A stretch of DNA of 64,000 nucleotides from an uncultured Gemmatimonadales bacterium (GTDB lineage Bacteria; Gemmatimonadota; Gemmatimonadetes; Longimicrobiales; RSA9). A model generated the notes under the pieces. It was not told the origin of the DNA and searched no databases. It was given only the letters and a program-made list of their open reading frames with translations. The DNA is taken from contig CAWCRS010000010.1 of assembly GCA_963798085.1 (NCBI GenBank), forward strand, positions 64,001-128,000, in the 5' to 3' direction. The position numbers and the translations under genes were made by a program. Shown piece after piece: positions 4,749 to 54,586 of this stretch (position 1 is the first letter of the stretch; each line of letters begins with the position of its first letter).

Positions 4749-4751
4749 GCC

Positions 4752-7257: not shown

Positions 7258-7262
7258 ATCGA

Positions 7263-10330: not shown

Positions 10331-10346
10331 GAATTCGCTCCGGCCC

Positions 10347-19525: not shown

Positions 19526-19796
19526 GAGTTCCGTCCGTGTGAGTGAGCGGATGAGGTGCGGCAGCCGATCGCGGCGAATCTAGACGACGTCACGCGCTCG
19601 TGTCCAATGGTCGGGCCGCCGTCCGCATGCGGGACATGCCGTCCCGCGTCCGGGGTGTGAGGGCGGCCCGCACCAACTCGCCGTACGGCGGCAGTGTGTT
19701 GCGCCGGCAGGAGTTGCGAGACACGCACGGCATGGCTCGCTTCTTCCGCTGAGAGGTGGGTTCCCCACAATGGCTCTCCACCGCCCCGGAGGCATG

Positions 19797-35476: not shown

Positions 35477-38400
35477 TCATCGAGTGTGATGCTGTGGCTG
35501 CAGCGCGTCCTCGCGCAGCACGGCATCCAGCGTGCCGACCAGGCGATTGGCGTCGTCGCAGCCGAAGACCAGCGGCGGCTTGATCTTGAGCACGTTGTGG
35601 AACGGTCCGTCGGTGCTGATCAGGATGCCTGACTCGCGCATGCGGTTGGCGACGTGGGCTGCGTGCCGGCCGGCGGGCTCGCGCGTTGCGCGGTCACGCA
35701 CCAGCTCGACACCCACATAGAGCCCGCGGCCGCGCACGTCGCCGATCCGCTCGTGCGTCCGCATCAGCGCACGCAGTCCTGCCTGCAGCTGCTCGCCGGT
35801 GCGCAGCGCGTTGCTCTGCAGCTGCTCGACCTCGATCACATCCAGCACCGCCATGCCTACCGCGCACGACACCGGGTTTCCACCGAAGGTGTTGAAGTAC
35901 TCCATGCCGTTGGCGAATAATGCGGCGATTGCAGGCGACGTGATCACCGCGCCCAGCGGGTGCCCGTTGCCGATGGGTTTACCGACGGTGACAATGTCCG
36001 GGAGCGCGTTCTGCTCCTGGAACGCCCAGAAGTGAGAGCCAACGCGGCCCATTCCAGTCTGCACCTCATCCGCCACGCACACGCCGCCCGCCGCGCGCAC
36101 CGCGGCGAATGCTTGAGCGAGGAACCCCGCGGGCGGCACGATCTGGCCGGCGCATCCGGGCAGCGCCTCGGCGAAGAACGCGCCAATGGGCCGACCCGCC
36201 TCCCGTGCCTCGGCCATCGCCCTTTCGACGGCAGCCGCGTACAGGTGACCGGCCTCCGCATCGTTGCCGCGGAACGGACCGCGATAAGGATCGGGCGCGG
36301 GCGCGACGTGCACGTGCGCCGCGCGTCCCTCTCCGCCGGGTCCGTTGAACTTGTAGGGACTCAGCTCGATGAGCGCGCTGGTGTTGCCGTGGTACGCGCC
36401 GTCCAGCACCAGCACGTCGTGTCGCGCCGTATGCGCCCTCGCCATGCGCAGGGCCAGCTCGTTGGCTTCGCTGCCGGAGCAGACGAAGAAGCAGACGCGC
36501 AGCGGTTCCGGCAGTGTCGCGCTCAGTCGCTCGGCGTAGCGCACGAGGTTCTCGTGCAGGTAGCGCGTGTTGGTGTTCAGCACGCGGCTCTGGCGCTCGA
36601 GGGCCGCGACCACGTGCGGATGGCAGTGGCCGACATGCGCCACGTTGTTGACGGCGTCGAGGAAGGGCTGGCCGGCTTCGTCGTACAGGAACTGACGCCA
36701 GCCGCGCACCATGGTGAGCGGCCTGCGGTAGGCAATGCTGAGCGCGCTGCCAATGCTGCGGTCGCGCCGTTGCCGCAGCGTGCCGGCATCGGGCGAAGCG
36801 GCCGGGTGCAACCCGGGCAGTCTTAACAGCAGGTTGGGATCGGGCGAGAGCGCCAGCCACAGCGCGCGCTGGCCGGGGCGGGCCACACCGGGAAAGGTGC
36901 CTTCGAACCCGAACAGATCGGTGACCACCTGCACGTGCAGGTGCGGCGGCCAGCCGCCGTTGCCCGGCTGCCGGCCCACCTCGCCAATGCGCTGTCCGCG
37001 CTCGACCGGTTCCCCCGCCCGCAGCCCGGACAGGCAGTCCGGTGACAGGTGACCGTACAGCGTCCAGAAGGTCAGGCCATCGGCAACCGTGTGGCGCAGG
37101 ATGATGGTGGGGCCGTAGTCGAGCAGGCCGGCATTGTCCTGTACACTCTCCACAATGCCGGCGAGTGGTGCGAACACGTCTGTTCCGGCCGTGACGAACA
37201 GGTCGATGCCCAGGTGCACGGTCCGCCATTCGGGTCCGTGCGCAGTTTCCACGCGGAACGCATCCGTCGTGTACCAGCGCCTGACTTCATCGTAGCGCCC
37301 GATGCCGATGTCGGCGCCTGCCGCGTGCATGGCGCCGAAGATGGCGCGATCCCACCCGCCCAGGTCGCTCGCATCGGCGGGTCCTTCCGGAAGCGTGTCC
37401 GCAATGCCCAGCTCGAGAGTCAGCAGCTCCGGCGCCGCCGGCGGAACGCCGAGTACGGGAAAGGCATCGTCGCCTTCGTTCTTCAACCACTGGGAAACGC
37501 GTACCGCGTGAGCGCTGGGCGGCAGCCCGCAGGCCTGGCGCAGCACGCAGGCGGCGAAGCGCGGGTGCACGCCGGCCAGGCGCTCGAGGCAGGCCCAGGC
37601 CGGCGCCTCGCTCACAGACAGGTAGACATTCTCCGGATGCTGGCGCCGCTGTTCCGCGGACAGCACGACGCTCATGCAGAGACGCAGGCAGAGCAGCGGG
37701 AAGAGCGCCTCGATTTCCACTTCCGGCAGCGGGCAAACAGCGTGATAGCCATGCACCACATGCGCGGCCGTGCTCACCGGATCCGGAGAGTCCAATGCTG
37801 CGTACGCGGCGGCAATGGCCACTTCACCGGCGATCCAGGAGTGCATCACATCGCCGAAATCGAGCAGGCCGGTGACCCCGATCGGCTTCTGCGGATCGTC
37901 CGCGTCCAGCTCGCCGACCAGGATGTTGTAGTCGTTACCATCACCATGGATCACGCCCGTGCGCAATGCTGCGAACCGATCGCCGGACATATCGAACAGT
38001 TGCAGAAACGACTCGACGCGGGCGCGGCGCACGCGATCGGAGATGGCACCCAGGTGGGTGGCAATCACGGTGCGGCCCTGGCGCAGATCCCAGTACAGCT
38101 CGCGCTGCGCGCCCGGGTGGGTGAATCCCTCGAGCGCGCGATCCACCTCGCCCATCAGCGCGCCCACAGCGGTGAGCAAATCCGGTGTCAGGGGTCGCGT
38201 CCCTGCGAGTGGCCGTCCCGGCACCCAGTCGAGCAGGCGCACCGCGTGGGTTGCACCGGCCGCCGTGGTGAACCGGCCGGTCGCTTCGCCGGCGTGCGTG
38301 CGCAGCAGGCGAGGAAAGCGGAACCGCGAGGTCACGCCGGCCAGGCGATCGAGCAGCTGGTTCTGGCAGTCCAGCAGGCCGGGGTCTTCATTGGTCTGCG

Positions 38401-38614
38401 AGAACTTGAGCACGAAGTCGCCGCGCTCCGTGCGCAGCCGGAAATTCTGATCGCGCTCCGAGGGCAGAGGCTCCGGCGTCGCCTGCAATCCGTAGAGCTG
38501 GAACGCCACCGTGGCCGCTTCCAGGGCGCTCAACCGGGGCGGCCTGTGCCCCTCGCCGGTCGGACTAACAGTGGATTCAATGCCCGCCAGGGCGCGGCCT
38601 GCGCCCGTGCTCAT
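35477..38614 (-). CDS. APH-like kinase / M23-like / class III aminotransferase-fold fusion (hydroxylysine kinase + phospho-lyase-like)
   Basis: [19 protein letters not shown] (kinase); HLGID, YGHL, PHLH (M23); [28 protein letters not shown] (PLP lysine); start uncertain. Confidence 0.88.
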
Positions 38615-39415
38615 GCGCCAGACCGCTGCGCTGTCAGACGGGCCGACATTCCACTGCGAAGCGGCCCGCTGGCAGTGTGCCGGGAGCGGTCGCCGTGAGA
38701 CCGGTGGCGCGGGCCAGAGGCATGAATTCGTCGAGCACCCAATGGCATCCATGGCGGGGCGACAGAGCGGCCTGAAGCTGCGCTTCGGCCCTGGTCGCGT
38801 CAAATGACAAGCACATGGCAGACGAGAACTCGCTCGGGATGCAGGCGGGGGTGCTTCCCTGCAATTGCCTGAACTTCAGCCGGGCGGGCGGGCGGGGGAA
38901 GGGTGCGCAAGTCGTTGGCGCCGACGCCTCACAGCATGTCGGGTTGCATATCTACGGGGGATTCCCTACCGTGCCGGAGAGGAAAACCTAATGTCGCGCC
39001 GTGTTGCGGCGTCTAACTTGACGCTCAAGCTGTGGGAACGAGGCTCGTGCGCACGATGCCTGAGGGCAGGCGTGGCCGGCCCGGGTTCTGCGGTTCGGAC
39101 TGCCGAACGACAATCCGAGCGGCTTCCCGAGCACTTCGGGAGGGAGCATGTGGCTGGCTCCGCGCGTGTTGTGGAATGCTGGTCTCCGGTGGGTCACTGA
39201 CGCTCTCGCGGGCGGACCGATCGTCGACCGTGCTGCAGTGCATGCGCTCCTGAAACACCTGCTCATCCATCCTGTTGCCATTCCATTCGTCGCCAATCCG
39301 TTGCTGGATCTGCCATGCATTGCGCTTCTGCAGGCAACGCACGAGCGGCCAGCGCGGTGCGCCATATCAGCACGACCGGCTGCCTGCCGGCCGCTCTTCG
39401 GAAGGGAGGGCGTAC

Positions 39416-40846
39416 ATGTATAGGGGTCGATGGAGTCTGGCTGCAGGTGCGCTCGTGTTTTCCGGACTGCTGGCTTCCGCCTGCGTGCGTACGGAGCGGG
39501 TGCTGGTGGACATTCCGCCCTACGAGAATCCGCCCACTGCCGCGCAGGGCTTCCTGGGTTACACCAACAGTGCGACCTCCAAACAGCCCGTTTGCGGCAA
39601 CTGCCACATCGGCCACTTCGAGGCGTGGAAGGGCACGCGGCATGCCAGCGCCTGGACGGACCTGCAGGCCAGCGGGCATGCGACCAATGCCTGCAACAAC
39701 TGCCATTCCGTGAGCGCGAACGGCAATCGGGTCACTGACTCCCTGGTTGCGTATGCGGCCACGAAGGACAAGCGGTACCAGGATGTGCAGTGTGAGAACT
39801 GCCATGGACCGGGGCTCGAGCATGTGACCAACCCGGACGCGACGCAGCCGCTGGCGTCCATCGTGGTGGGGACCGATCTCACCAGCGGTTGTGGCGAGTG
39901 TCATCGGGGAACGCACACGCCGTTCATCGAGGAGTGGACGCAGTCCGCTCACAACAACAAGCACGCGTCGCCGCAGACCAACGCCTCGTGCGTGCAGTGC
40001 CACGAGGCGCGCGGCATCTTCGCTGCCTGGGGCGTGAACACCAACTATCTGGAGAAGAACCAGACGACGCCGATCAACATCGGGTGTCCGGTCTGCCACG
40101 ACCCGCACGAACGGCGCAATCCGCATCAGCTCCGGTTCCCGATCAGCGATCCCAATGTCGACACCAACCTGTGCATGAAGTGTCATCACCGCCGGAGTGA
40201 GCCTGACCCGACCAAGGCCTCTTCCGGGCCGCACTCGCCGCAGGGGCCCCTGCTCCTGGGCGAGAGCGTCGGCTGGGTACCCCCTAACTTCACCTACACG
40301 GACAAGATCATCGGCACCCACGGCACGGAGGCGAACCCCGAGCTCTGCGCCGGCTGTCACGTCAGCGCTTTCAATGTGACGGACCCGGCCAGCGGCAACC
40401 TGGTGTTCCACGCCACCGGTCACCTGTTCAATGCGATCCCCTGCCTGGATTCGCAGGGAAAGCCGACGACATCCGACACCTGCCAGCTCTCCGAGCGCAC
40501 GTTCAAGGCCTGTGCCGCGAGCAGCTGTCACGGCACCGAGAGCGCAGCCCGCTCCGCGCTCACGGTGGCCCGCGGTCGCATTGACGATCTGGTCACTTCG
40601 CTCAACGCGCTGCTGAGCCGCGTCCCCAAGACGGAATTCGACGATAACGACGGCAAGCTGACGACAGCGGAGGGCGCCAAGTTCAATTCGGCGCTGGGCG
40701 CAATGGACGGCGCACCCATCCACAATCCGTTCCTGGTGGAGGCGCTGCTCACGGCCAGTATCAAGCAGGTCATGACCGATTACGGGCTGCAGGCTCCGCC
40801 CAGCCTCATCCTGGAGGACGTGCTGAGGGTGGAGGCCAGGCAGTAA
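39416..40846 (+). CDS. Multiheme cytochrome c lipoprotein (8 CxxCH + 1 CX4CH)
   Basis: Lipobox LASAC; CGNCH, CNNCH, CENCH, CGECH, CVQCH, CPVCH, CMKCH, CAGCH, CAASSCH; GGGAGG RBS. Confidence 0.9.
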   Translation: MYRGRWSLAAGALVFSGLLASACVRTERVLVDIPPYENPPTAAQGFLGYTNSATSKQPVCGNCHIGHFEAWKGTRHASAWTDLQASGHATNACNNCHSVSANGNRVTDSLVAYAATKDKRYQDVQCENCHGPGLEHVTNPDATQPLASIVVGTDLTSGCGECHRGTHTPFIEEWTQSAHNNKHASPQTNASCVQCHEARGIFAAWGVNTNYLEKNQTTPINIGCPVCHDPHERRNPHQLRFPISDPNVDTNLCMKCHHRRSEPDPTKASSGPHSPQGPLLLGESVGWVPPNFTYTDKIIGTHGTEANPELCAGCHVSAFNVTDPASGNLVFHATGHLFNAIPCLDSQGKPTTSDTCQLSERTFKACAASSCHGTESAARSALTVARGRIDDLVTSLNALLSRVPKTEFDDNDGKLTTAEGAKFNSALGAMDGAPIHNPFLVEALLTASIKQVMTDYGLQAPPSLILEDVLRVEARQ

Positions 40847-40908
40847 AGCAGCCCCGGATCGACGCAGACGAGCACACCCTGTTCGCAGGGAGGGACCTCG
40901 TATCAGCG

Positions 40909-41742
40909 ATGAGGCAGGCATCGCGGGCGGTGGCCGTCCTGGCGCTGGCACTAACCGCGTGTCAGAAGGCCGCCGCCCCTCCGGCGCAGGCTGGTGCTGA
41001 TTCGACCGCGGCAGCCGCGGCAACGGACACGGCGCCGGCCAGGGCGATCACGCCCATTCCCTTCGTCATGCGCACGAACCCGAACCGGTTCGCGCACTAC
41101 GCGCATCGTGGCGTCTCCTGCAGCACCTGTCACCCGGCGGTACCCGGCCACGGCAGGCACGGCGCGCTGGCCTGCTCCGAGTGCCACGAGCAGATCGGCG
41201 CCACCGCGACGGCAGCGCCGGTTACTTCCGTCGAGTGCAACGCCTGCCATCACGCCGCCGACCAGGCACGACCCTGCCTCGAGTGTCACGGCAGCGCACC
41301 GGCGGGCCCACTCGCCGTGCGCACGGCAGTGCGCGTGTCGGTGCGCCCGGCCACGGAGGAGCGCAGCCTCACCTTTGATCACGCGCGGCATCAGAGTCTG
41401 GCCTGTGGTGAATGCCATGCGGACAAGCCGCACGTGGGTGCGCCCCGACCCTGCAGCGCGTGTCATGATCGGCATCACCGGCCCGATGCGCAGTGTTCGT
41501 CGTGTCACCAGGCGGCGCTGCTGCCCATGCATGATCGCTCAGCCCACCGTGGCTGCGGGGGCAGTGGCTGCCATCAGGATCCGGTGGTAGCCAGCCTGCC
41601 GCTGACCCGTCCGGTGTGTCTCGTGTGTCATCGCGATCGGCAGGATCACGAGCCCGGCGAGAATTGCGCACGCTGCCATCTCCTGAGCACAGGCGACGGA
41701 CCGCGCAGCATTCCGGCCGCGCCGCGCGGGGAAGGGCGTTGA
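40909..41742 (+). CDS. Compact multiheme cytochrome c lipoprotein (9 CxxCH + 1 CX4CH)
   Basis: Lipobox LTAC; CSTCH, CSECH, CNACH, CLECH, CGECH, CSACH, CSSCH, CGGSGCH, CLVCH, CARCH. Confidence 0.88.
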   Translation: MRQASRAVAVLALALTACQKAAAPPAQAGADSTAAAAATDTAPARAITPIPFVMRTNPNRFAHYAHRGVSCSTCHPAVPGHGRHGALACSECHEQIGATATAAPVTSVECNACHHAADQARPCLECHGSAPAGPLAVRTAVRVSVRPATEERSLTFDHARHQSLACGECHADKPHVGAPRPCSACHDRHHRPDAQCSSCHQAALLPMHDRSAHRGCGGSGCHQDPVVASLPLTRPVCLVCHRDRQDHEPGENCARCHLLSTGDGPRSIPAAPRGEGR

Positions 41743-43218
41743 TGCGACACCGCTCGAGCCTGGTGTTCGCCCTGGCTCTCTGGTCCGTCGCGGCCTCACG
41801 CGCAACTGCACAGAGCGCGCGCATTACCGGTGTGACCAGCATGCAGTACGTGCAGCTGCGTCCACTCGTGGAAGACAGTGTGTCCGTGCTGGACGCCATC
41901 GGTGATGGCCTCATCCGGCGCACGGCGAATGGACAGCTGGTGCGCTGCGTGACCGGTGTGCCGTACTGCCAGTTCACGCGCTCGGCGGCACGCACGGAAG
42001 TCGTACCCGTGATCCAGGACATCACGGTGAGCGCATGGGGCATTGGTCGCGGCGTACGCGTGTATGCGCAGCTGCGCACACGCGCCGCCGTGGGCGGTCG
42101 CAACGAACTCTGGCCGCAGGCGAATGATGCATTCGATGCACTCTCCGCATATGTCGAGCTGGATCGCACGCGCTTCCGTTTGCGGGGCGGCCGGCAATGG
42201 AAGACGTCGGGACTCGGCTACTACAACTTCAATGGTGCGTCGGTGCTGTTGCGCGCGCTGCCCGGCCTTTCTCTGGAGGCCTTTGGAGGCTGGAGCCTGG
42301 TTCGTGGTATCAACGAGCCCCTTACCAGCGAGTCGCTGACGGCGATCGAGGCATTCGCACCGAATGCGCGGTCCCTTCTCCTGGGCGCGCAGGCAAGCTA
42401 CCGGCCGGCGGCTTCACTCGGCCTGGGCGCACTCTACCAGCGCGAGATCCGCAGTGACCGTCTCGGCCTGTACACGGAGCGTCTGGCCACCAATGGCGTG
42501 TGGCGCTGGCGGCGCGGCTCCGTCAGCGCATCCATGCAGGCTGATCTCGCATCCCGCGAAGTGAATGATCGGGCGGTTGACCACCCGCTTCATTGTAAGC
42601 GACGCCATCAGTGCCAGCGCATTCGTGCGCACATACCGCCCGTTCTTCGAGCTGTGGACCATCTGGGGCGCGTTCGAGCCGGTCGGCTTCACGGAAGCGG
42701 GTGTTGGCGGATCATGGCAGGACCCGAAGAACGCACTCGTGCTGAACCTCGACGTCGCGCGTCGCGGGTACGCGGACACGCACACCAGCACGGCCTTCGG
42801 CACCTACGAATCATCGGGCTGGACCGCCGCAGCGACCGGGTCGCTGCGGGCAAGGCGCGACTGGTTGGTGCAGGGTGATTATCGCATTGACTTCGGCTTC
42901 GGCGCCTCGCGCAGTGAGGCGAGCCTGCGCGTCCAGCGTGACATCGCGGATGGCACGTATGTAGGCGCCAGCGTCATGGGATTCCAGCAGCAGTTCGAGT
43001 TCCGGGTGGCTGATGGCACCGTGTTCGGTGCGGGCGCCGATGGTGCCCTGCGACTGGGGCCGCGCACACGGCTGAGCGCTTCCCTGTTGAACTACTGGCA
43101 TCGCGGCACCAGCGGATTGCCTGACGTGGACTGGGGTCAGTTGCGCGGGCGGCTGCAGTTCGAGTGGACCATCGGGCCGGAGCCGGGAGTACGCCTGGCC
43201 GGCGGAGGTACCCAATGA
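41742..43218 (+). CDS. Putative outer-membrane beta-barrel (porin) protein (frameshift near 42568)
   Basis: Signal peptide; alternating amphipathic strands rich in aromatic and Gly residues (AYVELDRTRFRLRGGRQW, VQGDYRIDFGFG, GRLQFEWTIG); translationally coupled between cytochrome genes. Confidence 0.7.
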
Positions 43219-44627
43219 CGTCGCGCGCGGGCATCATCACCGTCGCGCTCCTGCTTGCCACCGGCGTCTCGGCGCAGCAGCGCCCGCCCGCGCAGGACAC
43301 CTTCCCGCATCTCACACACGCGCGACTGTTCCCGTTGTGCGATGCGTGTCACGCGGGCATCAGCAGTGGCGTCCGGGCGGATGCGTTCCCGACGCCAGCG
43401 AATTGCGCGTCGTGCCATGATGGGCAGCGCGTGCGCCGGGTTTCGTGGTCGGGACGGGCGGCGCGTGCGTCCAACCTGAATTTCGCGCATCCCCGGCACA
43501 TCCTCGCGATCCGCAACGCGGGGGACTCGCTGGATTGCGCCGGCTGTCACTCCACGGGGGATACGGCGCGCATGGCGGTCGGCCCGCCGGATCCGAACGC
43601 CTGCACGGGCTGCCACGCGCACCAGGCGCCCGGGCACCTGAGTCCGGGGCGCGATTGTTCGACCTGCCATCTCCCGCTCACGGCCGCGACATCCCTGAGC
43701 GCTGCGCGCGTGTCGGCTTTCCCGAAACCCGCCAGCCACCAGGCGCCCGACTTCCTGCTTCAGCACGCGCCGGGTTCCGCCGTGGACCGGACTTCGTGTG
43801 CGACCTGCCATGCCCGCGAGAGCTGCGCCCGCTGCCACCTCAATGCGGATTCGGTTCCGGCTATCGCTGCGTTAGGCCGCGATGCGCGCGTGGCGGCTCT
43901 GGCACGCGACAGAGCCCCCGTATACCCGCAGCCGGCCAGTCACAGCACTTCGGTATGGCGTGCGAAGCACGGCGCGGAGGCGGTCGCGAACGTGGCGCAA
44001 TGCGCGAACTGCCACGCGAGGTCGAGCTGCACCGCGTGCCATCGCGACCGGGCGCCGCCCGAGGTGAGCCGCCTGCCGGTGTCAGGCGAGGCCGATCAGC
44101 GGGGCGTCGTGCTTCCGGCCCGGGTCACGCAGATCCACCCCGCAGGCTTCGTGAAGCTGCATGGGCCGGAAGCCGCCACCATGGAAACTTCCTGCCAGGC
44201 GTGTCACGCTTCGGCGTTCTGCGAGAAGTGTCACGCCGGGCCGGTTTCGCCCTCCTTCCACGCACCCAACTTCCTTGCGCGGCACGGGCCCGATGTCTAT
44301 GCCAATGACATCGAGTGCACATCCTGTCACAACCCCGAGGTCTTCTGCCGCGCGTGTCATGCGGGGTCGGGACTGGCGTCGAGGGGACGCCTGGGCGTCG
44401 CCTTCCATACGGCGAATCCGCTCTGGATCGTGGGCCACGGCGGCGCTGCGCGGCAGGGGCTCGAAGGGTGCGCATCGTGCCACCAGCAGTCGTTCTGCAC
44501 GCAATGCCATTCCGCGACCGCGGGCTGGCGCATCAATCCGCACGGTCCCGGCTTCAACGCGGCGCAGATCGAGAAGGCCAATCCTCTGACCTGTCGCCTT
44601 TGTCACGCGGGAGGCCCACCGCGATGA
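43215..44627 (+). CDS. 16-heme periplasmic cytochrome c
   Basis: Signal peptide ...ATGVSAQ; 16 CxxCH motifs counted. Confidence 0.9.
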   Translation: MTSRAGIITVALLLATGVSAQQRPPAQDTFPHLTHARLFPLCDACHAGISSGVRADAFPTPANCASCHDGQRVRRVSWSGRAARASNLNFAHPRHILAIRNAGDSLDCAGCHSTGDTARMAVGPPDPNACTGCHAHQAPGHLSPGRDCSTCHLPLTAATSLSAARVSAFPKPASHQAPDFLLQHAPGSAVDRTSCATCHARESCARCHLNADSVPAIAALGRDARVAALARDRAPVYPQPASHSTSVWRAKHGAEAVANVAQCANCHARSSCTACHRDRAPPEVSRLPVSGEADQRGVVLPARVTQIHPAGFVKLHGPEAATMETSCQACHASAFCEKCHAGPVSPSFHAPNFLARHGPDVYANDIECTSCHNPEVFCRACHAGSGLASRGRLGVAFHTANPLWIVGHGGAARQGLEGCASCHQQSFCTQCHSATAGWRINPHGPGFNAAQIEKANPLTCRLCHAGGPPR

Positions 44628-45976
44628 CGCAACAGCTCGCCGCATCCCGCGGCAAGGAACGCGCTGTGCGTTGCCGCTTCGCGCGCCGCGCGCGCGGGCT
44701 GATCCGGCTCGCGCTCCCGTTCCTTCTGCTTTCGAGCGCGAGCACGACCGTGTCGGCACAGCAGCTGCGGCCGGAGCGGTGCGCGGAGTGCCACAGCAAG
44801 CTGAGTGACGATCGGCTCTCGAAGCCCGCTCGCCTTTTCCCGACCGACATTCACGCGCAGAAGGGGTTCGGCTGTCTGGCCTGCCACGGCGGCGCCGCAG
44901 GTCACGACGCGGCCGCCGGCTTCCTCAGCAAGCCGGAACGCCGGGACATCCCCCGCCTGTGCGGTCAGTGTCACTCCGATGCGCAGTACATGAAGCAGTT
45001 CAACCCCGCGCTGCGCACGGATCAGGTGTCGGAGTACTGGACGTCGGTGCACGGGCATCGGCTCGCGGAAGCGAACGACCCGAACGTGGCGACCTGCGTG
45101 GACTGCCACCGCGTGCACGAGATCCGGCCGCCCAACGATCCGAAGTCCAGCGTGTTCCCGCTGAATGTGGCCGAGACCTGCGGCCATTGCCACGCCGACG
45201 ACAAACGCATGGCGCAGTACAGGATACCGACCGATCAACTGAGCAAGTGGCGACAGAGCGTGCACGGGCGGCTGATGTCGGAGAAGGAAGACCTCTCGGC
45301 GCCGACCTGCAACGATTGTCACGGCAATCATGGCGCAACGCCGCCCGGCATCGGCTCCATCCGCAATGTGTGCGGCCAGTGTCACGCCACTAACGCCGAT
45401 TTCTTCAGCGCAAGTGGTCACGTCGAGATCTTCGAAAAGGCGGGATTGCCCGGCTGCGAGACCTGCCACAGCAATCACGCGATCATGCCGGTGAGTGACG
45501 ATATCCTGGTGCGGCGCAATGACGAGGTCTGCCGCCGCTGTCATGCTCAGAATGACACGCTCGGCGGCGAGTTTCGCGCCATGGCGCTGTTGCTCGATTC
45601 GCTGAAGACCAGCTTCGATGAGAGCCAGCAGATTCTGCGCGACGCCGCCAATGGCGGAATGGAAGTCAGCCAGGCGCAATTCGAGCTGGAGGATGTGAAC
45701 AACGCGCTCACCAAGGCGCGTTCGTCCATCCACACATTCCATGTCGAACCCGTCAGAACGAATGTGGAAGCCGGCCTCAAGCTCACGGCCGCCGGCATCG
45801 CGCGTGGCCGCGACGCGCTGGGCGAGCATACGTTCCGCCGCCAGGGCCTGGCCCTGAGCGGTCTCGTGATTCTGCTGCTCATTACGGGCCTGCTTCTGAA
45901 GATCCGGCAACTCGAAGCGCGCAGCGCGCACGCCAACGGTGCAGCGGGCAGCCTGGAGGAGGACACGCATGGCTGA
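44624..45976 (+). CDS. Nonaheme cytochrome c with C-terminal membrane anchor
   Basis: CAECH, CLACH, CGQCH, CVDCH, CGHCH, CNDCH, CGQCH, CETCH, CRRCH; helical stalk, then TM GLALSGLVILLLITGLLL. Confidence 0.9.
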   Translation: MTQQLAASRGKERAVRCRFARRARGLIRLALPFLLLSSASTTVSAQQLRPERCAECHSKLSDDRLSKPARLFPTDIHAQKGFGCLACHGGAAGHDAAAGFLSKPERRDIPRLCGQCHSDAQYMKQFNPALRTDQVSEYWTSVHGHRLAEANDPNVATCVDCHRVHEIRPPNDPKSSVFPLNVAETCGHCHADDKRMAQYRIPTDQLSKWRQSVHGRLMSEKEDLSAPTCNDCHGNHGATPPGIGSIRNVCGQCHATNADFFSASGHVEIFEKAGLPGCETCHSNHAIMPVSDDILVRRNDEVCRRCHAQNDTLGGEFRAMALLLDSLKTSFDESQQILRDAANGGMEVSQAQFELEDVNNALTKARSSIHTFHVEPVRTNVEAGLKLTAAGIARGRDALGEHTFRRQGLALSGLVILLLITGLLLKIRQLEARSAHANGAAGSLEEDTHG

Positions 45977-46421
45977 CAGAAAAGCTGAACGGGTTACGCG
46001 CAAGCATTTCGTCGACTGGCTGATCGGCTCCAGCCTGGGCGGATTCCTGGTCGCCGTATTCTATCCGGTCACGCGCTACCTGATTCCGCCGCCGGTGAAA
46101 GAGGCGTCCGTCGGGTCTGTCACGGCGCCGTTCCAGCCCGGCGACCTGCCGGCGAATTCCGGCAAGATCTTCAAGTTCGGCAACGTGCCGGGCATCCTCG
46201 TCCGCACGCCGGCGGGTGAACTGCGCGCATTCTCGGCGCGCTGCACGCATCTCGCCTGCACGGTGCAGTATCGTGACGACCTGAGTCAGATCTGGTGCGC
46301 GTGTCACAACGGTCATTATGACCTGAACGGGCGCAATGTGGCTGGTCCTCCGCCACGCCCGCTCGAATCCTACGACGTCGCCGTGCACGGCAACGAAATC
46401 GTCGTGCGGCGCCGGGCCTGA
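45969..46421 (+). CDS. Rieske [2Fe-2S] protein of a bc/b6f-type complex
   Basis: CTHLAC and CACHNGHY boxes, GPPPRPL, Tat-like TRKHF followed by TM. Confidence 0.93.
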
Positions 46422-46429
46422 CGGCAGCC

Positions 46430-47506
46430 ATGGTACGCGAGCGATTCTCCGCACTGATCCACTGGCTGGACAACCGCATTGGGGTCAGCGGCCTGGCGCC
46501 GCTGGCGCGCAAGAAGAAGGTGCCGGTGCACCGCCACACGTTCTGGTACTACATGGGCGGGATGCTGGTCTTTCTGTTCATGCTGCAGGTTTCCACGGGC
46601 GTGCTTCTCCTGTTCTACTACCGTCCCAGTGCCGAGCACGCGTACGAATCCGTGCAGTTCCTGATGGCGGAAGTGAAGTTCGGCTGGCTGGTGCGGTCGA
46701 TTCACGCGTGGGGCGCGAACCTCATGATCTTCATGATCTTCGTGCACCTGTTCAGCGTGATGCTGCTCAAGGCCTATCGCAGCCCGCGCGAGCTGACGTG
46801 GCTGTCCGGCGCCCTGCTGCTCATGGTGGCTCTCGGCCTGGGCTTCACCGGTTATCTGCTGCCCTGGAACACACTCTCCTTCTTCGCCACACGCGTGGGC
46901 ACCGAAATACCCGGTGTGCTGCCCGGGGTCGGCCAGTTCATCCGCCAGTTCCTGCGCGGCGGCGAGGACATCAGCGGCGCCACGCTCACGCGCTTCTATG
47001 CGCTGCACGTCTCGGTGCTGCCGGGAATGGCCATCATGCTCATCGGCCTGCACGTGCTGCTGGTGCAGAAGCACGGCATGAGCGTGCCGCCCGGCGTGGA
47101 GAAGCAGGGCGGGAAAATGCGCAGCATTCCCTTCTTCCCTAACTTCCTGTTACGCGACCTGGTGGGCTGGCTGTCCGCGCTCACCATTCTGGCCGCGCTG
47201 GCGGCGTTCTGGCCGGCCGAGCTGGGTCAGAAGGCGGATCCCTTCGCGCCGGCCCCCGCCGGCATCCGGCCCGAATGGTACTTCATGTTCCTGTTTCAGA
47301 CGCTGAAATACCTGCCCGCGAAGATTCTGGGAATCGATGGCGAGCTGATCGGCATCGCGGGATCCGGCATCGCGGCGGTCGTGCTGCTGATCGTTCCCTT
47401 CGTGGATCGCCGCTCCAGCAGGCTCTGGACCTTCGTGGCCTGGGGCGCCCTCCTGTACATCATCGTGCTGACCACGCTCGGCTACATGGCCAATCCGGAG
47501 AGCTGA
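46430..47506 (+). CDS. Cytochrome b (cytochrome b6 + subunit IV-like fusion)
   Basis: [44 protein letters not shown], Qo motif RPEWYF. Confidence 0.93.
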
Positions 47507-47510
47507 CGCG

Positions 47511-48227
47511 TCACGCCGACTGCAGGTGACGGTGGCGCATCGCCAGGTGCAGCAGCACGACTTCGACGGGCAAGGCGGCCCATATGGTGATGCCCAGTGC
47601 CAGCAGCGCCGCGCCGGCGGCTGACACACGCGCATTCGTCCACCAGATTTCGGGACGGATGATCACCAGTGCAACCAGCAGCACGGTGAATGTCGTGATG
47701 CCCAGCACTGCGCCCCAGCGCCGCTCCGGCCAGCGTTGCACGGCATTGCTCACCGCACGCCACGCTTCACGCGCACACCAGCCGCACACCACCGCTCCCG
47801 CCACCCAGCCGAGTGCCGCCCCACCGATCAGGAACGGCTGGTGTACTGCGATCGCCCAGCGCGAGATGGAGATCCACAGCGTGATCATGAAGCTCACGAG
47901 AACGGCAGGAATGGCCCAGATCAGGCCTGCAATCGCCGCAGCAGCAGCGCGACGCCGGCTCATATCCGCGGACCGACCAAGGACACCGAGCACGCTGCCG
48001 TGAAGCAGGCCGAGCAACGTCCCCGCAAGGAACATGAACTGCGTGACATCGGCGCCGGCGGTGACGACGAGCGGATTGATCATGGCGGGCAGAGCGACCA
48101 GAAAGCCGCCCAGGACAATGCCCCCTGCCATGCCCGACGCCAAAACAAGACGGCCCGGCAGGCCGGGGCCGGAGATCAGGCAGGCGCGAACTTCTGAGGC
48201 GAACTTCGCAGACCTCGTCTCGTCCAT
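47511..48227 (-). CDS. Hypothetical multi-pass membrane protein
   Basis: About six hydrophobic helices; GGAGG RBS upstream of ATG 48227. Confidence 0.7.
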   Translation of the reverse strand: MDETRSAKFASEVRACLISGPGLPGRLVLASGMAGGIVLGGFLVALPAMINPLVVTAGADVTQFMFLAGTLLGLLHGSVLGVLGRSADMSRRRAAAAAIAGLIWAIPAVLVSFMITLWISISRWAIAVHQPFLIGGAALGWVAGAVVCGWCAREAWRAVSNAVQRWPERRWGAVLGITTFTVLLVALVIIRPEIWWTNARVSAAGAALLALGITIWAALPVEVVLLHLAMRHRHLQSA

Positions 48228-49764: not shown

Positions 49765-51540
49765 ATGCGACGACTGCGACCTCGACCTCCGTACGCATCC
49801 GTCCTGCTCCTCGCCGTGACACTGGCCGCGGCCTGTGCAGCGCGGCAGACACCCGCACGCACGGCGCCCTCGCCACAGCCGGCCGCGGCAACGCTGTACC
49901 AGCCTTCCCGCGCGCTGGGTGCGCTGTTCCGCGATGTGCAGCTGAGCCGCACGTTTCCGGACTCGAAGACATTCGTGGATGCGAGACCCAGGCTGCCCGC
50001 GCCCGAAATCGACGCGCGCTACGACTCCGCGCGCGATGCTGCCGGCTTCGACCTGCATGCGTTCGTCGCACAGTACTTCGTCCTGCCACAGTCGCGTGCG
50101 ACCGCGTTCCACACGGACTCGTCGAATTCCATGGAGCAGCACATCCGCGCGCTGTGGCCGGTGCTCACGCGCCCGGCCGATTCCGCACACGTGCGTTCTT
50201 CCCTGATTCCACTGCCGCACCCCTACGTGGTGCCGGGCGGTCGGTTCCGCGAGATCTACTACTGGGACTCGTACTTCACGATGCTCGGGCTGGTGACCAG
50301 CCAGCGCACGGACCTGATGCGTGACATGCTCGACAATTTCGCGTACCTGATCGCGCGCTTCGGGCATATCCCGAATGGCAATCGCACGTACTATTTGAGC
50401 CGCAGCCAGCCACCGTACTTCGGCGCCATGGTAGCGCTCTATGCGGCGGCCACCGACACAGCGAGTGCGCTGCCGTATCTGGGTGCGCTGGAGGCGGAGC
50501 ACGCATTCTGGATGGATGGTGCGGATCGTATCTCGCCGGGCCAAGCCTACCGTCGCGTGGTGCGCCTGCCCGATGGCTCGCTGCTCAACCGCTACTGGGA
50601 TGACCTTCCGGAGCCGCGACCCGAATCGTACCGCGAAGACCATGCACTGGCACAGCAGCTTCCCGCAGACCGGCGCGCGGCGTTCTATCGCAATATGCGC
50701 GCTGCCGCGGAGAGCGGCTGGGACTTCTCCAGCCGCTGGATGCGCGATCCCGCGGACCTGCGTTCCCTGGAAACCACAGAACTCGCGCCGGTCGATCTGA
50801 ACAGCCTGTTATACTGCAGCGAGCGCGTCAGCGCGGCGCTGCGCACGTTTCGCCATGGCCCCGGCAATGCCGCAGTGGCGCAGCGCTTCGCCGCGGCGGC
50901 GGCTGAGCGGCGGCGCGCACTGCTGGCCGCCGCATGGGATCCGGCGGACAGCTTCTTCTACGATGTGCGCTGGCGCAGCGCTGCGCGTGTCACCGATCGG
51001 CCGACCATGGCGGCTGCGGCGCCGCTGTACTTCGGTCTGGCCACGCTGGCGCAGGGCCGCGCTGTGGCGGCACGGCTGGAGCGGAATTTCCTGAAGCCCG
51101 GCGGCTTCGTGACTACAGGCATCCGCTCCGGCCAGCAGTGGGATGCGCCCAACGGCTGGGCGCCTCTGCAATGGCTGGCCGTCGAAGGGCTGCGGCGCTA
51201 CGGCCGCGCGGCTCTGGCGGACACGGCCCGGGCGCGCTGGCTCGCCCTCAATCGCAGGACGTATCAGGCGACCGGCCGCATGACCGAGAAATACGATGTC
51301 ACCGACCTCCAGCGCCCTGCGGGCGGCGGCGAGTACCCCACGCAGGATGGCTTCGGCTGGACCAACGGCGTGGACCTCGCCTTCTCCATCGGCTTCCCGT
51401 TCCCGATGGGGTCCGGCGAGCAGCGCGACCGCCCGCGCCGGCCGACTCGCCGGGCCCGGGCGGCGTTGCGTCTTACACCTCGAGCCGGTCCTGCGGCCTC
51501 GCCACGAGCAGGTAGAGCGCGGGCATCAGCAGGATACTGA
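49765..51540 (+). CDS. treA: Alpha,alpha-trehalase (GH37), probable lipoprotein
   Basis: PDSKTFVD, PGGRFREIYYWDSY, RSQPP, PRPESYRED, AAESGWDFSSRW, QQWDAPNGW, QDGFGWTNGV; lipobox-like LAAAC. Confidence 0.92.
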   Translation: MRRLRPRPPYASVLLLAVTLAAACAARQTPARTAPSPQPAAATLYQPSRALGALFRDVQLSRTFPDSKTFVDARPRLPAPEIDARYDSARDAAGFDLHAFVAQYFVLPQSRATAFHTDSSNSMEQHIRALWPVLTRPADSAHVRSSLIPLPHPYVVPGGRFREIYYWDSYFTMLGLVTSQRTDLMRDMLDNFAYLIARFGHIPNGNRTYYLSRSQPPYFGAMVALYAAATDTASALPYLGALEAEHAFWMDGADRISPGQAYRRVVRLPDGSLLNRYWDDLPEPRPESYREDHALAQQLPADRRAAFYRNMRAAAESGWDFSSRWMRDPADLRSLETTELAPVDLNSLLYCSERVSAALRTFRHGPGNAAVAQRFAAAAAERRRALLAAAWDPADSFFYDVRWRSAARVTDRPTMAAAAPLYFGLATLAQGRAVAARLERNFLKPGGFVTTGIRSGQQWDAPNGWAPLQWLAVEGLRRYGRAALADTARARWLALNRRTYQATGRMTEKYDVTDLQRPAGGGEYPTQDGFGWTNGVDLAFSIGFPFPMGSGEQRDRPRRPTRRARAALRLTPRAGPAASPRAGRARASAGY

Positions 51541-54500
51541 TGAACAGACGGGAGAACAGACCGCTCACGATCACCATGGCGAACGGCCGTTGCGAGTCGG
51601 TACCCACGCCGTGCGACAGCGCCGCGGGCAGCAGGCCGAGTGCCGCCACGAGCGCGGTCATCATGATGGGACGAAGACGCAGCACGGCCGCTTCGCGCGT
51701 CGCCTGGAAGATGCCCGCGCCTTCCTTGCGCAGCTCGTTGGCGTAGGAGATGTAGACCACGGCCGTCTGCACGGACACGCCGAACAGTGCGATGAAACCG
51801 ATGCCCGACGACACCGAGAAAGGCGTGTGTGTGAGCCAGAGAATGATCAGCCCGCCAATGGGCGCCGAGAGCACCACGCCGATGACCGTGATGAGCGGGA
51901 ACTTGAAGTTGGAGTAGAGCGCGAACAGCAGCAGGAAGATCACGAAGAGCGCCAGTGGCAGCACGATCTGCAGCTGCCGGCGTGACGCCTGGTACTCCTG
52001 ATACTCGCCGCCCCAGACAATGTGGTATCCGGCCGGGAGCTTGACCTGCTGACTCACCTGGCGCTGTGCATCCTGCACTGCACCGGCCAGATCGCGCCCC
52101 TCGACGGAATACTGGATGCCGATGAAGCGCCCATTGTCCTGGCGGTAGATGAAGGACGCGCCGTTCGCGACCTTGATGTCGGCCAGCTCCTTGAGCGGGA
52201 TGTGCTGGCCATCGGGCGTGGCTACCAGGATGTTGCCGATCGCCTCCGGCGTTTCGCGGAAGCGCGGCTCGAGGCGCACGACCAGATCGAACACCCGCTC
52301 ACCCTGCACGACGTCGCTCGCGGAGACACCGCCCACCGCGGCTTCGATCAGCTTGTTGATGTCATCGACATTCAGCCCGTAACGCGCAATGCGTGCGCGG
52401 TCCGGCGTAACCGTCAGGCTGGGCTGTCCCAGCTCCTGCACCAGCGTCAGCTCACGGATGCCGTCGACGCCGCCCAGCACACGCTTGATCTGCTTGCCCG
52501 TGGTCTCGAGCGTATCGAGGTCGGGTCCGAAGACTTTCACGTCGAGTGCGCTCTTCAGGCCGGTCTCTGCTTCGTCGACTGCATCCTCCGCAGGCTGCGT
52601 GTAGTTGAAGATGATGCCCGGGTACTGCCGCAGCTTCTGATCGATCGCAGCGATCAGTTCGCTCTTGTCGTGATACTTGCCGTGCCACTGGCCGTACGGC
52701 TTGAGGCCCACGAAGAACTCGGCATTGAAAAAACCCGTGGGGTCCGTGCCGTCATCGGGCCGCCCGTGCTCATCCGTGACGTTGGTGACCTCATCGAACG
52801 ACTTCAGAATGGCGCGGAACTGCGGTACCAGTGCGGACGACTCGTCGAACGAGATGGTGTAGGGCATGGTGGCGCGCACCCAGAGCGAGCCTTCGTCGAG
52901 GTGCGGCATGAATTCCGCCCCAATGCCGGGAATGAGCAGCAGCGATGCGCCGAAGATGGCGACGGACAGTGCGACGGTGAGGCGAGGCCGGGCGAGGCAC
53001 CAGTCGAGCGTCGCTGCATAGCGCTCCTTCACCCATTCGAATATCGGGTTGCGGCGCTCGCGCACGCCGTGGCGCAGCACCCACGCGCACAGCACGGGGA
53101 TCAGCGTGAGTGTTGCAATCAGTGCACCGACCAGTGCATAGATCGTGGTGTCCGCCATCGGCCGGAACAGCTTTCCCGACGGACCGGTCAGCGCGTAGAT
53201 CGGCAGGAACCCGGCCACGATCACCGCCACCGCGTAGAAGATCGGGCGATCCACTTCGCCCGCGGCCGCGACGATCACATCGCGAACGCTGTACTCGGTG
53301 CCGTGCCGCAGTGCCAGTTGCCGATGGATGTTCTCGACCATCACCACGGTGCCGTCGACCAGGATGCCGAAATCGATGGCGCCGATGGACAGCAGGTTCG
53401 CCGGGATGTTGCGCAGGTCCAGGCAGATGAACGCGAACAGCAGCGCGATCGGGATGGCGGCCGCGACGATCAGACCGGAGCGCAGGTCGTAGAGGAAAAA
53501 CACCAGCACCACAATGACCAGCACAATGCCGCGCAGCAGGTTGTCTTCCACCGTGTGCGTGGTCAGGTCCACGAGATTGCTGCGGTCGTAGAAGGGGTGG
53601 ATTCTGACGTCGCGTGGCAGCAGCGAGTCGTTCAGCTGCCGGGTCTTCGCTTCCACCGCCTTGAGCACGGTCTGCGCCTGCTCGCCCTTGCGCATGAGGA
53701 TGACGCCTTCGACGGCGTCATTGCGGTCATTGAAGCCGAACTGGCCGAGACGGGGCGCGTGGCCGATCGCGACCCTGCCCACATCCTTCACCAGCACGGG
53801 CGTGCCGCTGTGCGTCGCCAGCACGACGTTGCCGATATCCTCCAGCGTGCTGATGCGTCCCAGACCGCGTACGTAGTAGAACTGCCCGCCTTCCGAGTAG
53901 AAGCCGCCGCCCGTGTTGCTGTTGTTAGCGCTCAGCGCGTCGACGACATTGCCCACGGAGAGTCCTGTCGCGGCCAGGCGCGCGGGATCGAGGAGCACCT
54001 GGTACTGCATGGTCTCGCCGCCCAGCGGCGAGTCATCGGCAACGCCGGCCACCGAGCGGTACTGCCGCACGATGAACCAGTCGTTCAGGATCTTCAGGTC
54101 CATGGCCGACTGGTCGGGACTGTCCAGCACGTAGCGGTAGACCAGGCCGGAAGGCGAGAAGAGCGGATCGACGCCGGGACTCACGCCTTCCGGGATCTCG
54201 GCGTCGGGCAGGCGTTCGAACACCTGCTCGCGCGCGAAGTAGCTGTCCGTGCCATCCTCGAACGTCATGCGGATGGAGGACAGTCCATACAGCGAGATCG
54301 AGCGGATGATGCGCATCTTCGGGATGCCGTTCATTTCCGTCTCGATGGGAACTGTAATAAGGCGTTCGACTTCCTCCGCCGCGTGCCCGGGCCACTGTGT
54401 CGTGACTTCGACCAGGGGAGGCGAGAGATCCGGATACGCGTCCACGGGCAGGCGTCTGAACGACCAGATGCCGGCCCCGATCAGCAGCAGACTGAACAGC

Positions 54501-54586
54501 CCGACCAGGAACTGCTGGCGCAGTGACGCGGCGACAATGCCGTTGATGAGCGACGCGGCGCGCGACTCGTGTCTTTCCTCGCTCAC
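51473..54586 (-). CDS. czcA: CzcA-type heavy-metal RND efflux transporter
   Basis: LPVDAYPDL, SIGAIDFGILVDGTVVMVEN (CzcA-type TM4), RLRPIMMTALVA. Confidence 0.9.
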   Translation of the reverse strand: MSEERHESRAASLINGIVAASLRQQFLVGLFSLLLIGAGIWSFRRLPVDAYPDLSPPLVEVTTQWPGHAAEEVERLITVPIETEMNGIPKMRIIRSISLYGLSSIRMTFEDGTDSYFAREQVFERLPDAEIPEGVSPGVDPLFSPSGLVYRYVLDSPDQSAMDLKILNDWFIVRQYRSVAGVADDSPLGGETMQYQVLLDPARLAATGLSVGNVVDALSANNSNTGGGFYSEGGQFYYVRGLGRISTLEDIGNVVLATHSGTPVLVKDVGRVAIGHAPRLGQFGFNDRNDAVEGVILMRKGEQAQTVLKAVEAKTRQLNDSLLPRDVRIHPFYDRSNLVDLTTHTVEDNLLRGIVLVIVVLVFFLYDLRSGLIVAAAIPIALLFAFICLDLRNIPANLLSIGAIDFGILVDGTVVMVENIHRQLALRHGTEYSVRDVIVAAAGEVDRPIFYAVAVIVAGFLPIYALTGPSGKLFRPMADTTIYALVGALIATLTLIPVLCAWVLRHGVRERRNPIFEWVKERYAATLDWCLARPRLTVALSVAIFGASLLLIPGIGAEFMPHLDEGSLWVRATMPYTISFDESSALVPQFRAILKSFDEVTNVTDEHGRPDDGTDPTGFFNAEFFVGLKPYGQWHGKYHDKSELIAAIDQKLRQYPGIIFNYTQPAEDAVDEAETGLKSALDVKVFGPDLDTLETTGKQIKRVLGGVDGIRELTLVQELGQPSLTVTPDRARIARYGLNVDDINKLIEAAVGGVSASDVVQGERVFDLVVRLEPRFRETPEAIGNILVATPDGQHIPLKELADIKVANGASFIYRQDNGRFIGIQYSVEGRDLAGAVQDAQRQVSQQVKLPAGYHIVWGGEYQEYQASRRQLQIVLPLALFVIFLLLFALYSNFKFPLITVIGVVLSAPIGGLIILWLTHTPFSVSSGIGFIALFGVSVQTAVVYISYANELRKEGAGIFQATREAAVLRLRPIMMTALVAALGLLPAALSHGVGTDSQRPFAMVIVSGLFSRLFISILLMPALYLLVARPQDRLEV

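Follow-up and report, generated by a model that had tools for sequence, protein, structure and literature searches.

A run of seven co-oriented genes, encoding two predicted lipoprotein cytochromes, a predicted outer-membrane β-barrel, a 16-haem cytochrome, a nine-haem cytochrome with a predicted membrane anchor, a Rieske protein, and a cytochrome b, was identified at positions 39416-47506 of a 64,000-nucleotide stretch of DNA from an uncultured soil bacterium of the Gemmatimonadales (assembly GCA_963798085.1, contig CAWCRS010000010.1, positions 64,001 to 128,000; hereafter, the window). Sequence comparisons and structural models suggest that these genes (g1 to g7) likely encode one electron path between the quinone pool and the cell surface that uses the Rieske/cytochrome b complex. 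A preliminary description of the window had proposed a self-contained path of this kind, with a complex of the Q-cycle type; this proposal gains support from the predicted identity of the parts, the barrel fold of the g3 family, the modelled insertion of the 16-haem cytochrome into the barrel, and the linkage of the genes among relatives.

Gene content and organization of the operon

The first two genes of the operon, all of which lies on the + strand, encode predicted lipoprotein cytochromes: g1 (39416-40846; 476 amino acids [aa]) contains eight CxxCH motifs and one CX4CH motif and has a lipobox-like signal ending in Cys23, and g2 (40909-41742; 277 aa; c3/c7 type) contains nine CxxCH motifs and one CX4CH motif and has a signal ending in LTAC. 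The barrel gene g3 (41742-43218), which contains no haem motif, is followed by g4 (43215-44627), encoding a secreted cytochrome with a signal peptide and 16 CxxCH motifs, and by g5 (44624-45976), encoding a cytochrome with a signal peptide, nine CxxCH motifs, and a C-terminal hydrophobic helix (residues 409-427). The last two genes encode a Rieske iron-sulfur protein (g6; 45969-46421, starting at the ATG at 45969, with a GTG at 45939 also open) and an unsplit, b6-like cytochrome b of 358 aa with seven hydrophobic helices by hydropathy (g7; 46430-47506). Motif counts and coordinates bore out the preliminary description of seven co-oriented and mostly overlapping or closely spaced genes with 42 CxxCH and two CX4CH motifs in total. 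The junctions consist of a 62-nucleotide (nt) gap between g1 and g2, a 1-nt overlap of g2 and g3, 4-nt overlaps at both g3/g4 and g4/g5, an 8-nt overlap of g5 and g6, and an 8-nt gap between g6 and g7.

In 1000 residue shuffles, the number of CxxCH motifs averaged 0.39 and never exceeded 3, as against 42 in g1, g2, g4, and g5, while the remaining 57 kb of the window contain 10 CxxCH motifs over six frames, six of which lie in cytochrome genes of an Alternative Complex III operon described below. In each of the four cytochromes, the number of histidines outside the motifs at least equals the number of haems, which fits bis-His ligation. Searches against Pfam and NCBIfam assigned these cytochromes general domains of the c3/c7 type and placed them in no named family. 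A scan of 38700-47900 found no sigma-70-like sites (0.9 expected) and six terminator-like sites (3.8 expected), the only one on the + strand being located within g6. The genes flanking the operon are unrelated to it, with an aminotransferase fusion upstream on the opposite strand and a membrane protein, a trehalase, and a resistance-nodulation-division (RND) efflux operon downstream.

Frame break in the barrel gene

In this assembly g3 is read in two frames: the frame of 41742 holds to about 42560 (N part, 41742-42560), and the next frame is open from 42574 onward (C part, 42574-43218). The frameshift that the preliminary description had placed near 42568 is real in this assembly, although its exact site lies a few bases away, at four bases, CGGG (42570-42573, + strand), that correspond to one codon in intact homologs. 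Aligned with 36 homologs, the two g3 fragments are contiguous except for a few residues at the break. The homologs are single proteins of about 490 aa (423-521 aa for the best 120 of 616 at E up to 1e-5), and 14 orthologs from the genomes of relatives are open from the signal peptide through the stop codon; a fifteenth locus (L024) was excluded from this intact set, as its C-terminal part lies in another frame.

The assembly (12 contigs, 6.2 Mb, genome 90% complete) presents similar breaks elsewhere. Two genes encoding haem-copper oxidase subunit I (C3:435189-436533, i.e., COX1, which is in at least five frame pieces, and C9:138348-139706) are each split into several frame pieces, suggesting many indel errors in the assembly; ActC, the NrfD-type subunit of the Alternative Complex III encoded in the window, is found in two frame pieces, and a paralogous 16-haem gene on contig 7 is read in two frames. 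Because other essential genes of the assembly are also broken in frame, the g3 break is most likely an assembly indel error, and the operon is therefore probably intact in the organism. A true pseudogene is conceivable, but COX1, ActC, and another cytochrome gene are equally frame-broken in this assembly. Public contigs carrying parts of the barrel gene (three soil runs, one sample) included none that covers 42442-42639.

Predicted fold of the barrel and insertion of the 16-haem cytochrome

The g3 product belongs, by sequence, to an unnamed family of outer-membrane barrels, for which a profile search of 1.84 billion representatives returned 618, 353, and 202 representatives at E up to 1e-3, 1e-10, and 1e-30, respectively. 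The closest intact ortholog, which belongs to another genus and is 53% and 51% identical to the two g3 fragments, was modelled from a 39-row alignment (A1). The model (predicted local distance difference test [pLDDT] 86.7; predicted template modelling score [pTM] 0.80) shows a large, plug-less barrel with about 24 long antiparallel strands. Among the matches listed by Foldseek, all were outer-membrane barrels, and VIA-align matched the model to 22- to 26-strand barrels with Z scores of 15.7-17.9, a spread of about two Z units. The top VIA-align matches were plug-bearing 22-strand TonB-dependent transporters (Z 17.9-17.7), of which only the barrel part was aligned; the 24-strand usher FimD (Z 17.2) and MtrB (6r2q_B; Z 15.7, 358 residues, root-mean-square deviation 4.7) were also matched. 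The suggestion in the preliminary description that the product of 41742-43218 is a transmembrane β-barrel thus agrees with the model of the intact ortholog, which has MtrB among its matches. Pfam Porin_4 was found in five of the 39 A1 members, and MtrB_PioB (PF11854) in none of the 39 at E up to 1; the g3 fragments of the window themselves had no Pfam match at E up to 0.01.

All 16 CxxCH motifs of g4 are invariant or nearly so among 37 sequences (alignment A2). No solved relative was found for g4 by sequence, and no NCBIfam match, both at E up to 0.01; g4 is the only gene of the operon that matched Pfam Mtrc-MtrF_II-IV_dom (37.9 bits, cut-off 30). When the orthologous pair of barrel and 16-haem cytochrome was modelled as a complex, as the preliminary description had suggested, three runs scored 0.72, 0.67, and 0.63 (median 0.67), while three controls all scored 0.00; the mark used for this score is reached by 116 of 157 solved complexes and two of 215 mismatched pairs, counts that are only rough for custom alignments. 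The models contain 332-340 contacts, of which the runs share at least 75%, and the pLDDT of the partner is 74-76. The interface comprises barrel residues 37-468, including the invariant loop of the family (298-313), and cytochrome residues 243-460, with contacts lining the entire interior of the barrel. The C-terminal half of g4 is thus predicted to lie inside the barrel, with its N-terminal half hanging into the periplasm.

Predicted lipoprotein cytochromes

Cys23 and the nine haem motifs of g1 are invariant among 36 sequences (alignment A3). The model of g1 (pLDDT 76.1, pTM 0.73) presented as its best fold match OcwA (6i5b; E 5e-6, TMq 0.45, 446 columns), followed by an S-layer undecahaem cytochrome (6qvm; E 1.3e-4), with NrfA nitrite reductases next and weak (E 0.008 and above); a search by sequence found the same two entries, 6i5b and 6qvm. 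The DmsE/MtrA model (TIGR03508) gave g1 34.3 bits against a cut-off of 192.2, and no match of g1 to Pfam Mtrc-MtrF_II-IV_dom was found. Based on its modelled fold, g1 is likely to be the cell-surface end of the electron path.

The second lipoprotein cytochrome, g2, matched Pfam Cytochrom_CIII (49.2 bits) and Cytochrome_C7 (32.2 bits). A g2-like 10-haem gene lies directly upstream of g5-g6-g7 where this module is free of a barrel (L038, L039) or divergent from it (L035), suggesting that g2 may work with the inner module and not at the cell surface; the 10-haem lipoprotein seems to travel with the inner-membrane module. At these three loci (L038, G025:C12; L039, G027:C6; L035, G005:C102), the four genes form a module of a g2-like cytochrome, a nine-haem g5, a Rieske protein, and a cytochrome b.

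Rieske/cytochrome b module and other respiratory genes

The g6 product matched Pfam Rieske (46 bits) and contains both Rieske boxes (CTHLAC at residue 92 and CACH at residue 110); its nearest NCBIfam model is that of the b6f subunit PetC (67.2 bits against a cut-off of 250). The g7 product matched Pfam Cytochrome_B (175.5 bits) and Cytochrom_B_C (37 bits) and contains Hx13H at residue 92, Hx14H at residue 193, and PEWY at residue 281. While its nearest solved chain is a cytochrome b6 (1q90_B, 201 bits), g7 scored below every curated cut-off, including those for cytochrome b6 (228.6 bits against 325) and for ExtP (NF040969; 210.1 against 290); because g7 is unsplit, the ExtP match is confined to residues 33-219. 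No match to a cytochrome c1 or f family was found in the operon (Pfam, NCBIfam) that could represent a monohaem third subunit; the neighbouring g5, with its nine CxxCH motifs, occupies by gene position the slot that cytochrome c1 or f has in other Rieske/cytochrome b operons. All 22 g5 orthologs listed contain nine CxxCH motifs, most keep the hydrophobic C-terminal stretch, and g5 constantly adjoins g6-g7 in the loci compared.

A second candidate quinol oxidoreductase is encoded in the window, as an Alternative Complex III operon (3456-11015, - strand) is located 30 kb from the conduit operon; its presence implies that the Rieske complex need not serve general respiration. This operon includes an ActA-like multihaem gene (10347-11015), an ActB-like gene of the molybdopterin type with 4Fe-4S clusters that is found as two open reading frames (ORFs; 8924-10330 and 7263-8612), the NrfD-type subunit in two frame pieces (about 6087-7062), a gene encoding a monohaem cytochrome c (4752-5399), and a 430-aa ORF without Pfam match (3456-4748), all on the - strand. 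The splits in these genes look like further frame errors of the assembly. Haem-copper oxidases are also present in the genome. A gene for the large subunit of ribulose-1,5-bisphosphate carboxylase/oxygenase (RuBisCO) was not found in this 90%-complete genome, in which other carbon-fixation routes were not searched.

Linkage of the operon genes across Gemmatimonadota

The gene order of the window recurs in relatives, as the preliminary description of one operon would predict. The order g1 to g7 was observed in six of 15 loci from the genomes of relatives, and 80 public loci included 26 with g1 to g7, 36 with g1/g2-g3-g4 only, and 18 that were too short to tell; the full order was thus present in 26 of 62 decidable loci, a Rieske module being scored as missing where none was found within at least 3.5 kb downstream. 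By name, 77 of these 80 loci are from Gemmatimonadota lineages, two from an "uncultured bacterium", and one from Candidatus Krumholzibacteriota. Across an even sample of the phylum, the barrel family was found in 131 of 301 genomes and 68 of 128 genera, while an ortholog of g7 (cytochrome b of at least 64% identity) was found in 28 of the 301 genomes. All 28 genomes with a g7 ortholog encode the barrel, as compared to 103 of the 273 genomes without one; these co-occurrence counts overstate the statistics, since related genomes are not independent. The distance between the g7 ortholog and the barrel gene was at most 10 kb in 16 of the 28 genomes, 10-26 kb in six, and 1.16 Mb in one, and the two genes were on separate contigs in the other five.

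These genes were found together in at least four orders, including g1-g2-g3-g4-g5-g6-g7, g1...g2-g5-g6-g7-g2'-g3-g4, a convergent order, and a divergent order. In three loci from other families of the class (L123, G302:C4; L124, G328:C9; L125, G263:C20), the Rieske module is located between g1 and the barrel; the order in L123 and L124 is g1 ... g2-g5-g6-g7-g2'-g3-g4, and L125 has a single g2-like gene, located between g7 and g3. A second set of g1-g2-g3-g4 was identified in the same genome as the window, on contig 7 at about 620000-625100 (- strand), with no Rieske or cytochrome b genes seen beside it; the N part of its paralogous barrel is 40-42% identical to that of the window.

More distant cytochromes b were also observed. 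Nine genomes of families f10 and f11 encode a cytochrome b that is 50-56% identical to g7, and the barrel was found in none of the 16 genomes sampled there. Four loci (L040, G013:C1; L041, G036:C4; L126, G160:C16; L130, G310:C9) encode a further cytochrome b, more distant at 39-44% identity, together with a g5-like cytochrome. This distant type is sometimes located near conduit genes, with a weak g6-like match (24% identity) in L126 only, and was absent from the genome of the window in a PF00033 search.

Proposed electron path and its direction

Taking sequence and models together, the balance tips modestly towards a reading in which the seven products work as one chain that carries electrons outward, from membrane quinol to an acceptor at the cell surface. 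Quinol would be oxidized at the PEWY (Qo) site of g7 together with g6, where the motifs are observed and the activity is presumed from them, and this step would conserve energy by a Q-cycle. The Rieske cluster would then reduce the nine-haem g5, which by its gene position and C-terminal anchor may substitute for cytochrome c1 or f, and electrons would pass, perhaps via the 10-haem g2, to the periplasmic N-terminal half of g4. The C-terminal half of g4, placed inside the barrel by the complex model of the orthologous pair, would carry them across the outer membrane to g1, which, judging from its fold likeness and lipobox, may take up electrons outside the cell and pass them on to acceptors such as humic substances and minerals of Fe(III) or Mn(IV). 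Outward flow is favoured on four grounds: the likeness of g1 to a terminal reductase, the negative search for RuBisCO, the prevalence of heterotrophs among carriers according to a survey of metagenome-assembled genomes (MAGs; PMC13264449), and the availability of a second quinol oxidoreductase.

The same wire may instead run inward, which we regard as rather unlikely though deserving of weight. In that case the donor would be Fe(II), Mn(II), a mineral in reduced form, a partner cell, or a cathode. Its electrons would enter through g1, g4, and g5 and reach the Rieske/cytochrome b complex, which, reversed by the proton-motive force, would reduce the quinone pool, while other electrons would flow downhill to oxidases. 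Every structural argument for a path across the envelope applies equally to this direction, the spare histidines for bis-His ligation would suit haems below the potential of the Rieske cluster, and the haem-copper oxidases and Alternative Complex III offer a downhill branch. A precedent for a complex running in reverse is the petI bc1 complex of Acidithiobacillus ferrooxidans, which is held to reverse during Fe(II) oxidation. The porin-cytochrome systems MtoAB and PioAB are also described as working inward (He et al. 2017, PMC5566968). Autotrophy, which usually needs such reverse flow, left no sign in the 90%-complete genome as far as RuBisCO is concerned; the fold of g1 is closest to that of a terminal reductase, OcwA; and the MAG survey, as described, deems most carriers of such clusters to be heterotrophs that export electrons (PMC13264449), all of which speaks for the outward direction.

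It seems improbable that the operon encodes a respiratory reductase for a soluble or colloidal substrate (e.g., selenite, tellurite, or sulfur or nitrogen oxyanions) rather than a conduit to minerals or electrodes. This idea draws on the score of g7 with the ExtP model, which is named "selenite/tellurite reduction operon b-type cytochrome", on the impaired selenite and tellurite reduction described for a deletion of the porin gene extI (PMC5877670, PMC6148476), on the described relationship of OcwA to reductases of soluble acceptors (PMC6703420), and on the weak NrfA fold matches of g1; however, the ExtP score is below its cut-off and about equal to the cytochrome b6 score, Pfam identified no rhodanese domain in any of the seven products, a scan of eight reading frames yielded no CxxCK motif of a catalytic haem (a selenocysteine codon was not looked for), and the 16-haem cytochrome that fills the barrel in the model would leave little room for a substrate channel. 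We give very little credence to g5-g6-g7 being a general complex III for oxidases or denitrification, located beside the conduit through regulation or history and transferring no electrons to it. While g7 is the single PF00033 match in the 90%-complete genome and the conduit module occurs without g5-g6-g7 in many relatives, the Alternative Complex III operon lies only 30 kb away, g7 orthologs are too rare in the 301 genomes for a housekeeping complex of the phylum, all 28 genomes that have one encode the barrel (22 of them with the genes at most 26 kb apart and variously rearranged), and start and stop codons overlap across the g4/g5 junction.

Several points weigh against a single path from quinol to the cell surface as set out above. 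The conduit is frequently found without the Rieske module (36 of 62 decidable loci and 103 of the 131 barrel-bearing genomes sampled), so that the Rieske complex is an optional partner of the conduit. As g7 is the sole cytochrome b found in the genome, a wider respiratory role is conceivable. Bis-His haems are often of low potential, and outward flow from the Rieske cluster may therefore be poor, which would favour inward flow or acceptors of high potential. Neither the barrel nor the complex was modelled from the broken g3 of the window itself, the ortholog used in both cases belonging to another genus. If the frame break were real, this copy of g3 would yield no barrel. The complex model was built without haems, and its high score may owe something to a likeness in architecture with the solved MtrCAB (6r2q), although comparisons by sequence revealed no similarity to Mtr proteins. 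The public runs listed as matching the stretch include no RNA run.

A bolder version of the outward path, which we put forward tentatively and which is somewhat unlikely to hold in full, is that all 44 haems are joined with the barrel and the Rieske/cytochrome b complex into a single hard-wired supercomplex spanning the whole envelope, with which members of a common and mostly aerobic soil phylum would respire solid high-potential Mn(IV) and Fe(III) oxides with a full Q-cycle, or run the reverse reaction. The quinol dehydrogenases of the model metal reducers are not known to conserve energy in this way.

Other genes in the window

A 1108-aa open frame upstream of the operon (35477-38803, - strand) unites APH phosphotransferase, peptidase M23, and class-III aminotransferase domains and represents either an unusual fusion or an artefact of long open frames in a high-GC genome. 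Downstream, an ordinary RND efflux operon (51473-57040, - strand) encodes an AcrB-type pump, a membrane-fusion protein, and an outer-membrane factor. Two MacB-like ABC permeases, also ordinary, are encoded at 19770-22244 and 61267-63978 (+ strand).

Implications for possible mineral respiration in Gemmatimonadota

Gemmatimonadota are among the commonest bacteria of soils and sediments, and our literature search found no papers on how they might exchange electrons with minerals. In the 301-genome sample, 28 of 131 barrel carriers (about a fifth) hold a Rieske/cytochrome b complex that was found only together with the barrel. Should this complex power the conduit, a proton-pumping Q-cycle would be linked to extracellular electron transfer, and estimates of how much energy mineral respiration or mineral oxidation yields, and over what redox window, would change; the operon would also provide a defined seven-gene set for searches of soil transcriptomes and for expression in a host.

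Comparison with known systems

The Mtr conduit reaches quinol through CymA. Like MtrCAB (6r2q), MtoAB, and PioAB, the system of the window would place a multihaem cytochrome in the lumen of a large barrel and a lipoprotein cytochrome outside, here by prediction only; unlike in those systems, the barrel is not of the MtrB/PioB family, no component qualifies as MtrA/DmsE, and the outer cytochrome is OcwA-like rather than MtrC-like. The MtrA and MtrB comparison proposed in the preliminary description accordingly returned no members of either family (TIGR03508, PF11854), and its view that the cluster matches no characterized complex still stands, in that no component of the operon reaches the curated cut-off of a characterized family. 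Its premise that conduits reach the quinone pool through separately encoded proteins was too strong, being contradicted by the ext cluster of Geobacter and by clusters that contain petB and petC (PMC5877670, PMC13264449).

The clearest printed precedent for a conduit co-encoded with Rieske and cytochrome b proteins is extHIJKLMNOPQS of Geobacter sulfurreducens (GSU2940-2930), which is described as encoding a porin-like protein (ExtI), cytochromes with 5, 12, 10, and 4 haems, a Rieske protein (ExtO), and a cytochrome b (ExtP) (PMC5877670). The same four kinds of component are encoded together in the window, a likeness in layout and not in sequence. While ExtP is short and b6-like, with a separate membrane protein ExtQ, g7 is unsplit at 358 aa and falls below the ExtP equivalog cut-off; and while the ext cluster includes a rhodanese lipoprotein and a selenoprotein cytochrome and, as described, no outer-membrane cytochrome (PMC6148476), the window encodes two lipoprotein cytochromes and no rhodanese domain, with cytochromes of 9, 10, 16, and 9 haems. 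In addition to the selenite and tellurite phenotype of extI, extHIJKL is described as contributing to the reduction of Mn(IV) and Fe(III) oxides (PMC6148476). As compared by description, g1 to g4 also resemble ExtABCD and OmbB-OmaB-OmcB in combining a periplasmic cytochrome, a barrel, and lipoprotein cytochromes outside, ExtABCD likewise holding two lipoprotein cytochromes (PMC6148476); they differ in that 18 strands are predicted for ExtB and 12 haems are given for ExtA in the published account, compared to about 24 strands (in the model) and 16 haems here. The available descriptions of these two Geobacter clusters mention no Rieske/cytochrome b complex, and the decahaem model for GSU2203 gave only weak scores with g1 (32.3 bits) and g5 (36.3 bits) against a cut-off of 325.

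The likeness of g1 is to OcwA, which is described as a nine-haem terminal reductase on the cell surface of Thermincola potens (PMC6703420), and to 6qvm of Carboxydothermus ferrireducens, both of which are cell-surface cytochromes of metal-reducing bacteria; these proteins are, however, located on Gram-positive walls without a barrel, whereas g1 is predicted to be a diderm lipoprotein, and the likeness amounts to 16-19% identity and a TM score of 0.45. In PCC4, the gene for a porin is likewise clustered with genes for several multihaem cytochromes and a redox protein of the inner membrane, but the cytochromes described are three periplasmic ones, with 4, 5, and 10 haems, and none is extracellular, while the inner-membrane protein is of the five-helix dihaem type with two WX3HX13H motifs where the window has a Rieske/cytochrome b pair (PMC5566968); membership in PCC4 was ruled out by the haem numbers of 9, 10, 16, and 9, by the two predicted lipoproteins, and by this pair. 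As in bc1 and b6f complexes, the inner module has Rieske boxes, four haem-ligand histidines, and the Qo motif PEWY; unlike in b6f, the b6 and subunit IV parts are fused in g7, and the NCBIfam cut-offs for b6 and PetC were not reached.

Among other reports, a Caldithrix genome contains a Rieske/cytochrome b pair inside a nap cluster with no conduit (PMC5317091), the authors of a study on Desulfatiglans state in the available text that they did not find conduit homologs (PMC13343851), and the available portion of a 2026 paper on a multihaem selenoenzyme holds nothing on Rieske proteins or gene clusters (PMC13510729). Searches of the literature from 2019 on for operons with Rieske/cytochrome b plus multihaem or porin genes found, in the accessible texts, no description of the cluster of the window. 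Searches on Gemmatimonadota with conduits, extracellular electron transfer, or Rieske proteins found no analysis of the seven-gene system beyond one sentence in a 2026 survey of MAGs from karst, which describes several porin-cytochrome clusters that contain petB and petC and argues for electron export by heterotrophs in the majority of carriers (PMC13264449). One karst carrier, SAW209, is assigned to the Gemmatimonadales, family GWC2-71-9 (PMC13264449, supplementary table S3), and its cluster is, by its description, probably of the same kind as the operon of the window; in its available portions, the survey treats the petB/petC clusters in that sentence and a figure, without sequence analysis, models, or distribution. 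The operon is thus not unprecedented, and its novelty lies in components that score below the cut-offs of characterized families, in an OcwA-like outer cytochrome, and in a Rieske/cytochrome b complex of its own.

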